Below, in pieces: positions 30,162 through 63,177 of a stretch of 64,000 bases of DNA; positions within the stretch are counted from its first letter, which is position 1, and each line of letters starts with the position of its first letter. This DNA is from a virus. Taxonomy: Duplodnaviria; Heunggongvirae; Uroviricota; Caudoviricetes. The notes beneath the pieces were generated by a model. It was given only the letters and a program-made list of their open reading frames with translations. It did no database searches and had not been told where the DNA came from. The stretch spans positions 104,465-168,464 of IMG/VR virus record IMGVR_UViG_3300028413_000003; one strand, written 5' to 3'. A program made the translations under genes and the position numbers.

Positions 30162-30413
30162 AAAGTACTGCGACTTCCATTGGCGACAATGGTCGAATAA
30201 TTCCTCTAATTGCTGGAAACTCCTATAAGGACAATCAGCAGCCAAGCCTAATGCGTTAGGAAGGTTCAACGACTAGTCGAAAGACGTACACTCAAGTGAG
30301 TGGAAACGGGGAACATCTGTGTTAACATAGATGGTGATATAGTCTGATCTGCATGGTAACATGCAGCGGCCGCAAGGCGGGTTGGAATTAACGACTCTAA
30401 CTGAACATCAATG
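30162..30413 (+). ncRNA. ORF-less group I intron (252 nt) in polB motif B
   Basis: Exon ends in U paired with G in P1 (TCGT/GCGA); core AATTGCTGGAAA, AATCAGCAG, GTTCAACGACTA, GATATAGTCT; terminal G; removal restores NS-LYG in frame. Confidence 0.92.
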
Positions 30414-30943
30414 TGTACGGTGCTATTCTTAATCCAGGTTGTAGATTCTTTGACAAGCGTATTGGACAATCAACTACACTAACTGGTAGGCAGATTGTTA
30501 AGCATATGAGTGCAAAGGTCAACGAGATCATCACAGGCGATTATGATCATGTAGGTAAGTCTGTTATTTACGGTGACACTGATTCCTGTATAGCAGATTC
30601 GGTAATTGAGACTTCACTAGGGGATATGACCATCGAAAGCTTATTCAATAGACTGGAAATTAAAACTAAAAATGGAGACAAGGAATACGCACACGACGAC
30701 AATGTAATGGTAATGTCATACGATAGAGAACGCAACGAACCATATATGGGTCATATTAATTATGTGTATCGCCACAAAGTCTCCAAGGACTTATACGAAA
30801 TTGAGGATTCGGACGGCAATATAGTTACAGTAACCGAAGATCATTCAGTAATGGTCGAACGCAACGGTGAATTAATAGAAGTTAAGCCTCAGGAAATTGA
30901 CGAAGGCGATATTATAATAACACTTAATATTCATCATACCTGA
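30414..30943 (+). CDS. polB: PolB part B, exon 2, ending in a split-intein N-fragment
   Basis: LYGAILNPGCRFFD...QSTTLTGR...IYGDTD then intein sequence to TGA 30941-30943. Confidence 0.88.
30584..30940 (+). mobile_element. Split intein N-fragment (119 aa)
   Basis: Starts SCIADSVI right after YGDTD; block B VTVTEDHSVMV; acidic end EIDEGDII. Confidence 0.88.
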
Positions 30944-31130
30944 AAAATATAATTTAGATTTTATCATTAAACAATCAGGAGTAACAGCAAAAGAAGTATG
31001 GTCCAGAGATAAAATTAAATTAGAAGAAGCAAAAAAACGTGGATTCGATGTAATGGTAGTGTGGGATAGCCACTACACAGCAAATACTAAACTAGTAGAA
31101 CAACAAATATTAAAATGGTGGAACGAATGA
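30939..31130 (+). pseudogene. Start-less remnant of a Vsr-like (PD-(D/E)xK) homing endonuclease between the intein halves
   Basis: PEKY...TAKEVWSRDKIKLEEAKKRGFDVMVVWDSHY...LKWWNE*; no start after the upstream in-frame TAA; stop overlaps ATG 31127. Confidence 0.7.
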
Positions 31131-31354
31131 AAGATAAATTAATCAAGATATTATCAGCAAACACTAAAGAGGAAGTTGCTGTTGCAGTAAAGGACTTCCT
31201 GGATGGGGTTGGATCTAAGAAACTAAGTCTATCTCGAGGCAAAGTTAAAAGAGTTACTAGAGTTCAAAAAGCTAACGACGAATACGTATACGACATAGGA
31301 ATGAAAAATAGTAGTCAGCCTTGGTTCTTTGCTAACAACATCCTAATCCATAAC
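31127..31354 (+). mobile_element. Split intein C-fragment (76 aa)
   Basis: Basic GKVKRVTRVQK, block F EYVYDIGM, block G FFANNILIHN followed by Ser+1. Confidence 0.88.
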
Positions 31355-32209
31355 TCGGTGTATTTCAGTGCGTACAACATGTTAAAAGAAGATATCGATG
31401 CAGGAAAAGTACCCTGGGGTATTGACAGTGTTATTAAACTGTATGATCAGATAGCTGAAGAGACCAACAAGTCATTTCCGGCGTTCATGGGCGCATCATT
31501 TCATTGTCCAAAGAAGCGTGCCGAAGTTATTGCAGCAGGTAGAGAAATTGTTGCAGAAGCAGGATTATTCATTACCAAGAAAAGGTATGCAGTGCTAGTA
31601 GTCGACAATGAAGGCGAACGCAAGGATGTTGACGGTAAGCCAGGAAAGATCAAAGCACTAGGACTTGATCTTAAAAGATCAGACACTCCAGTGTTTATGC
31701 AAAAGTTCCTAAGTGAATTATTGACTATGGTACTTCTAAAGCACCCAGAGCAAGACGTTCTAGATGCAATTATTAAATTTAGAAAAGAGTTCAAGGATCG
31801 TCCTGGATATGAAAAAGGTTCTCCTAAACGTGCAAATAATATCCAGGCGTATCAACGCAAGGAAGCAAGTTTAGGAAAAGCAAACATGCCCGGGCACGTT
31901 CGAGCAAGTATCAACTGGAATACACTAAAGCGTATGAATGGCGATAAGTATTCACAAGAGATTGTAGACGGTATGAAGGTTATTGTTTGTAAAGTAAAGC
32001 CCAATCCGCTAGGATATACCAGTGTTGCTTTTCCAGTAGACGAACTACGTCTACCCGAATGGTTTAAAGAGTTGCCATTTGATGATAATGCAATGGAGTC
32101 TGCAATCATTGACAACAAGCTGGATAACCTGATTGGTGTGTTAAACTATGATTTACAAAGCACACTATTAAACAATACATTTAGCTCACTATTTGATTTT
32201 GGAGACTAG
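31127..32209 (+). CDS. polB: PolB part C, beginning with a split-intein C-fragment
   Basis: After HN: SVYFSA, then FITKKRYA, GLDLKRSDTP; ATG 31127 with SD GGTGG. Confidence 0.9.
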   Translation: MKDKLIKILSANTKEEVAVAVKDFLDGVGSKKLSLSRGKVKRVTRVQKANDEYVYDIGMKNSSQPWFFANNILIHNSVYFSAYNMLKEDIDAGKVPWGIDSVIKLYDQIAEETNKSFPAFMGASFHCPKKRAEVIAAGREIVAEAGLFITKKRYAVLVVDNEGERKDVDGKPGKIKALGLDLKRSDTPVFMQKFLSELLTMVLLKHPEQDVLDAIIKFRKEFKDRPGYEKGSPKRANNIQAYQRKEASLGKANMPGHVRASINWNTLKRMNGDKYSQEIVDGMKVIVCKVKPNPLGYTSVAFPVDELRLPEWFKELPFDDNAMESAIIDNKLDNLIGVLNYDLQSTLLNNTFSSLFDFGD

Positions 32210-61372: not shown

Positions 61373-61941
61373 TATCGATTTCCTATTATTGTTGCTACTA
61401 AATGCGATCGAACACTTTTACTACCGTTGAAGACCGAATGCAAAATAGTAGTATCGGTAAAATACCATTTATTTTTTTCTAAATGCTTCACTTGATCATC
61501 AATTACCATAAAACACCCAGTGTGTGTGTCTATTGGGAAATGCACTCTTGGATGGTAGTCAACATGCCAAGACAAACATGTCTTGGGATGTAGATTCATT
61601 ATGCGCACTCTACCTAGGATATACTTATCACTAAGCGCATTGTATACTTTTTCAAAACTTGTATTTATAAATTGGTCACATAATATTGTAAAGTCGGATT
61701 CGTTAAGTATAACTTTATTTACAGGAACGTCAATATTTCCATCTTTGTCAACCGTTGAGTTATCCCAGTCGTAATACAAGCTACCGGTTCCTAATAAGTA
61801 GTCGGTATTTTTTCCTGGAAGAGTATTTAAACAAATTTGTGAACCATTATTATACTTAATAATGTTGTCATCTACTAATTTCGTTAGGTCGGTATGTAAG
61901 TCAAAGACCGGTAAGTCAGCAAGTTCAGTGAAATGTTTCAT
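61372..61941 (-). CDS. Asp/Asn beta-hydroxylase-like 2OG-Fe(II) dioxygenase
   Basis: GRVRIMNL...SWHVD...RVHFPI...DTTILHSVFNG...RSHLV; start moved to 61941 after ATAAATA. Confidence 0.75.
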   Translation of the reverse strand: MKHFTELADLPVFDLHTDLTKLVDDNIIKYNNGSQICLNTLPGKNTDYLLGTGSLYYDWDNSTVDKDGNIDVPVNKVILNESDFTILCDQFINTSFEKVYNALSDKYILGRVRIMNLHPKTCLSWHVDYHPRVHFPIDTHTGCFMVIDDQVKHLEKNKWYFTDTTILHSVFNGSKSVRSHLVATIIGNR

Positions 61942-61954
61942 ATTAGTATTTATG

Positions 61955-62922
61955 TTAAGGCAGTTTACGTTTTGGAATTTTAGAATCGGCACTGCTTACA
62001 CAACTGTCTGTTATGCACGGCATTGCTTTGTTAAATAATTTAAACCCAGTTTCGACATTACCGAGCGGCACATCATGACATGAGTAGCTTCGTTTAACCG
62101 ATCCGTCGGGTTCACGTATTATAATTCCTTGATACCCAGCGTTGCAACTCCATCCTTTGAATTTATTGAAGTTAAAAGCATTGAATCGTTCAGCTTGATC
62201 CATGTACCATTTTGTACCGTCCTTGTCTTTGAGTTCTATCTGCATATGCCACGGAACACTTGCGTCGTTGTTGCCTACTACTTCTTTTGGTATTTCAAAA
62301 GTTGCTTTGGGACGATTAGCCCATGTGCGTTTAGATTCTGTATAGGCGCGCTGCGGCATGCCGTTGTGCAATGCCTTGAGTATTTCTTCGGAATAACCGT
62401 CTACAATTCGAGAAGCAGTTGGGTCACTCATCGGCTTGAGCGTAACATTAATTCCTTGCTCATGAAAGAATAATGCGTTATTCCAATCTTTGTCGAACCA
62501 TTCAGGAACCATAACCATATTAATGGTAACTTGTACATCGTGTTCTTGGCAATATATCAACTTGTCTGCAAAGTCTTGCATTTTTGCAGTCGTGTCCAAG
62601 TGCTCTGTGTGCAAACTTGCAGTAATACTTGCGCGATGGAATGACTTTGTAATTTCTACATACTCCTCAAACCAGCTCATAGGGCGCGAGCAATTGCTGG
62701 TCATGTGTGTTGATGTGTAATTTGTAGACCCGACGTCAGCAGCAAGGTGTTTGAGCATGTCAAGGTACCCTGGGTGGAACGTGGGTTCGCCACCGCTCAA
62801 CGAAAAGTGAAAGCTGTTAAAGCCATTTTCTCTAGCTTGTCGTTTGATCTCGTCAATTGTTTTTAAACAAAGCTCGGTTGGCCTGTGATCTTTTTTATCA
62901 GATCGAGCGTAAGGCCAGCAAT
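61955..62922 (-). CDS. Radical SAM enzyme, exon 2
   Basis: (Y)CWPYARS...SLSGGEPT...TSN...SLHTE; C-terminal CNAGY...SYSC...C...CVSSAD; spliced product 371 aa. Confidence 0.85.
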
Positions 62923-63177
62923 CATATTGTTCAAACAGTGTCGTTAATACTGTCCCGGAACGTATCCAGCTGCATGTTACCATGCAGATCAGACTATATC
63001 ATCATCCCAGTTGTGGGATGCTCCCCGTTTCGACTCACATGAGCCTACGTCTTTCGACTAGTCGTTGAACCTTCTTTGTGTAACAAAGCTTGGCTGCTGA
63101 TTGCCCAAAAGCATGGGGTTTCCAGCAATTAAAGGAGTTTTCGACCATTGTTACCAATGGAAGTCGCATTGATGTTT
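62923..63177 (-). ncRNA. ORF-less group I intron (255 nt) in the radical SAM CxxxCxxC motif
   Basis: Same core as the polB intron; exon ends TCGT paired with GCGA; terminal G; removal restores CNYRCSYC. Confidence 0.92.

Follow-up and report, generated by a model that had tools for sequence, protein, structure and literature searches.

Some phages carry several related group I introns, each in a conserved part of an unrelated gene. The introns of T4 td, nrdB and nrdD (sunY) and those of Twort, SPO1, and SPbeta are of this kind, and the T4-type introns, which belong to group IA, have a core of the P7.1/P7.2 type. Here, we describe a pair of introns with the same arrangement and the same type of core in a stretch of 64,000 nucleotides (the window, positions 104,465 to 168,464) of IMG/VR record IMGVR_UViG_3300028413_000003, an uncultured jumbo phage. 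One intron interrupts the gene of a family B DNA polymerase (polB), and the other interrupts the gene of a radical SAM enzyme. Unlike the introns of T4, Twort, SPO1, and SPbeta, both copies lack an open reading frame (ORF), and their hosts are PolB motif B and a radical SAM cluster-binding motif. Judging from sequence comparisons, we consider it probable that the two introns come from one lineage that made an old move between the two sites and was then spread at each of them by DNA-level homing in trans.

Two other kinds of system are close to this pair. Collaborative homing has been described for other phages (PMC3984707; PMC2790892). Such systems join ORF-less introns to a free-standing HNH or GIY-YIG gene that adjoins the interrupted gene; their distribution is sporadic, and the intron and its flank are far more conserved than the exons. 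All of this is found here as well. The differences are that the nuclease targets here are only presumed, that different nuclease families occupy one polB split, that the GIY-YIG gene of relatives lies inside exon 1 together with a duplicated exon fragment, and that the radical SAM copy of the present genome has no adjacent nuclease gene. The second comparison is with ribosomal DNA (rDNA), where related group I introns at different sites are taken as circumstantial evidence for spread by reverse splicing (PMC1299323; PMC3984707). As in rDNA, related introns are found here at heterologous sites that have only a guide match of 4-6 nt in common. In contrast to rDNA, the interrupted phage genes here encode proteins and are found on opposite strands at a distance of 33 kb, and homing nucleases offer an alternative driver.

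The virus record is 251,140 bp long and is estimated to be 71% complete. When we searched it with the Rfam model RF00028 (Intron_gpI; gathering score, 50), the two introns were the only matches, with 92.9 bits at 30152-30366 on the plus strand and 100.2 bits at 62970-63239 on the minus strand, and the full model (1-253) was matched. Both introns fold stably (z = -2.96 for polB and -3.48 for radical SAM), and in either case 0 of 200 shuffles were as stable. As a junction check, we used the 80 closest IMG/VR relatives of each host gene. The polB intron is preceded by AAC TCG T and followed by TG TAC GGT, and without it the ligated exons read ...KKINLNS/LYGAIL... (the slash marks the junction), which is PolB motif B (Kx3NSxYG). 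Uninterrupted WDKRQLVKKINLNSLYGAIL is present in 79 of the 79 polB loci that hold the site and equals the predicted ligated exons. Similarly, the radical SAM intron is preceded by TGT TCG T and followed by AT TGC TGG, and its ligated exons read ...FCNYRCS/YCWPY..., the CX3CX2C motif; again, an uninterrupted FCNY(R/K)CSYCWPY, equal to the prediction, was found in 79 of the 80 relatives. Both introns are real, and their boundaries are right.

The two introns were folded separately, and the helices common to both are P2, P3, P4-P5, P6, P7.1, P7.2, P8, P9, P9.1, and P9.2. P7.1 has the form GUC-GAAA-GAC, P7.2 is a 5-bp hairpin, and both show compensatory changes; having these extra helices between P7 and P3′, the introns fall into subgroup IA. 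On an alignment of nine delimited relatives, 31 of the 64 predicted helix pairs showed compensatory changes on both sides. Between the two window introns themselves, P5 is compensated (UCCU/AGGA versus CCCA/UGGG), and so are P8, P6, P7.2, P9.1, and P9.2. Both insertions are in phase 1, after a Ser codon plus U, and P1 is identical: exon UCGU pairs with guide GCGA over 4 bp, with a U.G pair at the splice site. Both introns end in a terminal G. P10 is 4 bp long in each, made by GUAC with exon positions +2 to +5 in polB and by CAAU with +1 to +4 in the radical SAM gene; a P10 run of at least 4 is expected by chance with a probability of 0.09 per intron. In relatives, TCGT precedes the intron at every occupied polB site, and P10 covaries with the exon, with AUAC facing UGUAU in L029 and L025 (G000 denotes the present virus record, and all other G and L labels denote IMG/VR genomes, contigs or loci compared with it). 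Beyond TCGT, the two target sites have nothing obvious in common. A preliminary description of this DNA, made from the sequence alone, had given the same intron boundaries, the TCGT exon ends, the P10 matches, the peripheral stems that vary yet stay paired, the lack of an encoded endonuclease, and the position of both introns in catalytic motifs. All of these points held up, and the model search and the covariation count agree with its group I assignment. Both introns appear functional, each splitting a codon in a catalytic motif. We infer that they splice, and precise splicing of each would be needed to make the host enzyme. Catalytic motifs are expected targets, because nucleases and guides both favor invariant sequence (PMC2814812). 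Coordinates are collected in Table 1.

Two short identities involve the ends of the introns and are recorded here as side observations. The last 10 nt of the polB intron (AACATCAATG, 30404-30413, plus strand) equal positions 2-11 of the radical SAM intron (63167-63176, minus strand). The naive chance of this is about 1e-5; it rises to about 0.01-0.05 once the AAA start typical of the family, the selected P10 guide, and the G of the guide are taken into account. The 5′ end of the L005 intron is likewise similar to the family consensus 3′ end. The 10-nt identity could be the scar of a move between sites, or a coincidence. Separately, the radical SAM 3′ exon begins with 8 nt (ATTGCTGG, 62915-62922, minus strand) that equal the conserved J3/4-P4 strand of the intron (AATTGCTGGAAA, 63121-63128, minus strand). 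This could have arisen by chance, could put the RNA at risk of misfolding, or could be a microhomology that matters for insertion.

Table 1. Features of the two interrupted genes, in window coordinates
Feature	Position	Strand	Remarks
PolB part A, exonuclease domain and motif A	27122..28792	+	Ends in stop codon; Pfam DNA_pol_B_exo1, DNA_pol_B
Free-standing HNH homing endonuclease gene	28782..29975	+	Probable start 28815; phrog_655 8.8e-35, phrog_12434 HNH 2.5e-13
PolB part B exon 1	29972..30161	+	GTG start overlaps HNH stop; 94% identical to G001
5′ exon TCGT, exon strand of P1 (polB)	30158..30161	+	U30161 makes the U.G pair at the splice site
Group I intron, subgroup IA type with P7.1/P7.2	30162..30413	+	252 nt, ORF-less, in PolB motif B
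Internal guide, polB intron	30165..30173	+	P10 guide GUAC 30165-30168, U, P1 guide GCGA 30170-30173
3′ exon TGTAC	30414..30418	+	+2 to +5 pair with P10 guide
PolB part B exon 2, to YGDTDS	30414..30586	+	Pfam DNA_pol_B, Intein_splicing; then N-intein 30587-30943
Radical SAM exon 2, ..YCWPYARSD.. to stop codon	61955..62922	-	Pfam Radical_SAM 1e-07
3′ exon ATTG, pairs with P10 guide	62919..62922	-	
Group I intron of the same family	62923..63177	-	255 nt, ORF-less, inside CX3CX2C motif of radical SAM gene
Internal guide, radical SAM intron	63164..63171	-	P10 guide CAAU 63171-63168, then directly P1 guide GCGA 63167-63164
5′ exon TCGT, exon strand of P1 (radical SAM)	63178..63181	-	
Radical SAM exon 1, MNNNLKWSEYDF...FCNYRCS and first base of Tyr codon	63178..63325	-	

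Members of the intron family were collected by nhmmer with a profile made from the intron alignment. The family is large and occurs in many genes, and the guide of each member is complementary to its own exon. By blastn, the polB intron matched 696 phage records, Escherichia, Bacillus, and Staphylococcus phages among them, with identities of 60-95%. The two window introns are 75% identical to each other counting gaps and about 79% over ungapped columns. The preliminary description had pointed to their long identical blocks. These exist (29 and 32 nt) but are not private to the pair: the first block contains a core 23-mer that recurs in 76 other IMG/VR loci, and the 32-mer recurs in 15 other viral loci, many of them distant introns that match the window introns in that block alone. 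The blocks are a conserved family core, and we rejected them as proof of sisterhood.

Both sites are occupied in other phages. At the polB site, introns are found in G001/L008 (98% identical), L026, L029, L025, L047, L023, and L071; at the radical SAM site, they are found in L005/G002 and in L277. The last is a contig of another metagenome, and its 102 available intron bases (the first 102 nt) are 100% identical to the window radical SAM copy. It was the sole true copy among the 80 listed of 102 matches when metagenomes were scanned with the 5′ junction of the radical SAM intron, the other 79 of these 80 being an unrelated conserved soil gene. In IMG/VR, nothing matched a pattern specific to P5 of this intron. 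Across the two sites, the introns of L026 (polB) and L005 (radical SAM) are 83% identical. L046 carries an intron (5893-6136) in the same CX3CX2C motif but 6 nt upstream of the window site, with exon CGGT, guide GCCG, and 3′ exon GTTCT; it belongs to another branch of the family and represents an independent invasion of the motif. Two to four family introns lie within a few kilobases in L256, L030, L075, L051, L020, L021, and L257, and L256 has two copies only 68 nt apart (5507-6048), so multi-copy genomes are common in this family. The preliminary description had suggested a survey of the genome and its relatives for further copies: relatives have them at both sites, and the record itself has only the two. 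Among the genomes checked, we saw no second one with both introns: G001 has the polB intron but only paralogs of the radical SAM gene (24-45% identity) and no ortholog; in G003-G007, which also carry the polB intron, nothing matches the radical SAM gene; and the contig of G002 stops short of polB.

A maximum-likelihood (ML) tree was computed from 255 columns for 29 near-full-length members of the family. Six introns form a clade (support, 97/92): the radical SAM intron of the window, the polB intron of the window and that of G001, and the polB introns of L023, L025, and L029. L005 at the radical SAM site and its motif neighbor L046 fall outside. In the best tree, then, the window radical SAM intron stands among polB-site introns, away from the others at the radical SAM site. 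If near-identical copies at the same site are set aside (98% for polB and 100% over 102 nt for radical SAM), each window intron is the other's best match, and constraining the window pair and G001 together slightly improved the log likelihood (lnL, +3.2) relative to the free tree. In the quartet of the two window introns, L005, and L026, 21 informative columns support an arrangement across sites, 6 an arrangement by site, and 10 the remaining one; P2 and P9 contribute many of the 21, at positions that are paired. By the approximately unbiased (AU) test, grouping the radical SAM-site introns costs 12.7 lnL (p 0.205), grouping them with L046 costs 22.6 lnL (p 0.068), and grouping the polB-site introns costs 12.9 lnL (p 0.163); none is rejected. 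The similarities are also mosaic. P2 and P9 are common to the two introns within the genome; P9.1 of the radical SAM intron matches that of L046, and its P3, P7.2, and P8 resemble those of L023, L025, and L029. On these comparisons, the pair appear to be close relatives in one lineage that spans both sites. The preliminary description had called them sister introns. Their homology and common lineage stand; a sister arrangement is the best supported, but exclusive sisterhood is not settled by the tree or confirmed by the AU test, and recombination may be involved.

Signs of homing are found at both sites. At polB, the HNH gene separates PolB part A from part B and lies 190 nt upstream of the intron. 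When G000 is compared with G001, the intron is 98% identical and the 207 nt of upstream exon are 94% identical, versus 78% for the exon after the 3′ splice site and 71% for the C-terminal exon; part A gives 73-76% by blastn. This pattern looks like recent homing with co-conversion of the 5′ flank. The polB gene of G001 is split in the same way and has no HNH gene there; at that split, L029 and L047 carry another nuclease-like ORF, 331-341 amino acids long. In L171, the closest polB relative (part A is 97% identical at the amino-acid level), the gene is not split and has neither HNH gene nor intron.

At the radical SAM site, the signs come from relatives. In L005 (8208-9117) and L277 (1226-2110), the radical SAM gene that carries the intron has a GIY-YIG gene inserted in its exon 1. 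Ahead of the inserted gene lies a truncated second copy of exon 1, whose end is 19-25 nt upstream of the intron site; I-TevI-type enzymes cut at this distance. The two GIY-YIG proteins are 60% identical to each other; that of L277 matches SegE_GIY-YIG at 1.1e-05, and the GIY-YIG match of L005 (7.2e-04) is below the Pfam cut-off. In L046, another ORF lies at the position of these genes. The present genome has no nuclease gene beside its radical SAM gene, and a GIY-YIG paralog is found about 8.4 kb before the window. Exon 1 of the window gene is 91% identical to that of L277, compared with a median of 75% to other orthologs. In exon 2, identity to G002 is 87% over the first 86 nt and 73% over the rest.

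From these findings, we would reconstruct the history as follows. One intron lineage once moved between the polB and radical SAM sites, both of which offer UCGU. The divergence of about 25% within the pair indicates that the move is old and not recent, and it need not have happened in the present genome. At its own site, each copy would now persist and pass from one related jumbo phage to another through DNA-level homing that free-standing endonucleases drive in trans, that is, by "collaborative homing." The candidate nucleases are the HNH enzyme beside the polB copy here and the GIY-YIG enzyme beside the radical SAM copy in relatives. Their targets, like the direction and mechanism of the cross-site move, are presumptive. 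Still, trans-acting free-standing nucleases better explain the present spread of each intron. The preliminary description had favored intragenomic spread rather than homing. Both halves of this are weakened by the data: nuclease genes and an identity of the intron and its 5′ flank well above that of the other exons point to homing, and the occupied sites in other phages, the identical 102 nt of L277, and the divergence of the pair speak against a copying event within this genome. Its further idea that one splicing condition couples replication to the enzyme cluster finds no bearing in the sequence; the genes are on opposite strands, 33 kb apart.

Several points weigh against this history. The record covers only 71% of the genome. 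The tree, with its 255 columns, has limited resolution, the AU test does not reject grouping by site, and the mosaic modules mean that recombination may distort it. The HNH gene is 190 nt from the intron site, and its target is only presumed. The G001 polB intron has no HNH gene and the G000 radical SAM intron no adjacent nuclease gene, so that action in trans has to be assumed.

How the lineage changed sites is a separate matter. The same UCGU/GCGA pairing at two otherwise unlike sites is what a guide-directed move would leave, and the L046 intron, with its own guide and site, points the same way. The preliminary description had the lineage spread to a heterologous site through P1 recognition. 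The shared pairing and the unlike flanks stand, but P1 has to match for splicing whatever the insertion route, and it cannot tell reverse splicing from DNA-level insertion. It is conceivable, though we rather doubt it, that the lineage moved between the polB and radical SAM sites by guide-directed (P1) insertion at the RNA level, perhaps repeatedly, followed by retuning of P10 and recruitment of nucleases. The window pair and the L026/L005 pair would then be separate events, the GCCG sub-lineage would independently have taken the site 6 nt away, and the 10-nt identity (AACATCAATG) could be a scar of the mechanism.

In a stricter form, which we find unlikely, the intron was copied within this genome at the RNA level, by reverse splicing into UCGU, reverse transcription, recombination, and later retuning of P10, with no endonuclease homing at all. 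Reverse splicing is the standard proposal for ectopic spread, although the same review states that there is no direct evidence for the pathway (PMC3984707). The identical P1 in unlike flanks, the P10 fitted to each site, the mutual best matches and the gain under the pair constraint, and the L046 sub-lineage 6 nt upstream (guide GCCG, exon CGGU), which fits guide-directed choice of site, are all in keeping with such copying. However, a P1 match is required under any route, the pair's divergence is too great for a recent event, and both sites are occupied in other phages, including the 100% identical radical SAM fragment from another metagenome. Homing endonuclease genes flank both sites, with a co-conversion-like tract at polB, and no match to reverse transcriptase (PF00078) was found in the 251-kb record, 71% complete as it is.

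Alternatively, the two introns could have entered by independent homing from different donors, with the extra similarity in P2, P9, and J2/3 coming from later gene conversion between the copies resident in one genome or simply from family-wide conserved modules. The mosaic modules would fit this, as would the 32-nt block, which contains this P9 and is found in 14 otherwise distant introns, the 83% identity of the cross-site pair L026/L005, and the failure to reject monophyly by site. Independent entry, however, leaves the same P1 and guide at two unrelated sites unexplained when the guides of other family members differ. Moreover, no other genome was seen with both sites occupied, and G001 lacks an orthologous radical SAM gene. 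We regard such a history as improbable. That the introns have decayed and lost splicing, leaving pseudogenes, is very hard to believe, given the full-length Rfam matches, intact core, U.G pair and terminal G, changes that are compensatory rather than disruptive, exons that are both open and conserved, a polB gene that is essential, and a polB intron 98% conserved across two phages.

Other features of the two loci are as follows. For PolB, identity is about 48% with PA5oct-like Pseudomonas phages; with Agrobacterium phage Atu_ph07, Sinorhizobium phage Phosso, and a Vibrio phage, it is 44-46%. The gene (27122-32209) is fractured in three ways: by a stop codon plus the HNH gene, by the intron, and by a split intein. 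Part B ends in the N-intein with its own stop codon, and part C opens with the C-intein (start at about 31115, extein from 31355, ..LIHN/SVYF). From its sequence, this is evidently a split intein of the "fractured gene" type. L171 has a full 320-amino-acid ORF between the intein halves, of which the last 69 amino acids remain here (30921-31130; phrog_22677 5.5e-08). On the minus strand, at least five radical SAM/SPASM genes and an Asp/Arg beta-hydroxylase-like gene stand in a row (60656-64000, continuing beyond the window to G000:C1:175879; L084), and only one of them (61955-63325) carries an intron. The cluster in G001 is syntenic with this row but highly diverged (24-45% amino-acid identity). 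The interrupted radical SAM gene has 216 relatives in IMG/VR and no match among isolated phages.

By what route group I introns come to occupy new sites is an old question. The introns described here are apparently of the phage group IA type with homing in trans, and they make a moderately interesting and testable case for ectopic transposition. The interpretation given in the preliminary description is supported in part. For tests in protein-coding genes, these phages provide a natural and compact set: one guide serves two unrelated catalytic motifs, the P10 guides differ and covary with their exons, the second invasion, 6 nt away, has another guide, intronless alleles are abundant, and the candidate trans-acting nucleases are of three kinds. 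In polB, a single essential gene, selfish elements have piled up to an extreme degree. With this pair, the known hosts of phage group I introns are extended to motif B of a family B polymerase and to a radical SAM enzyme.

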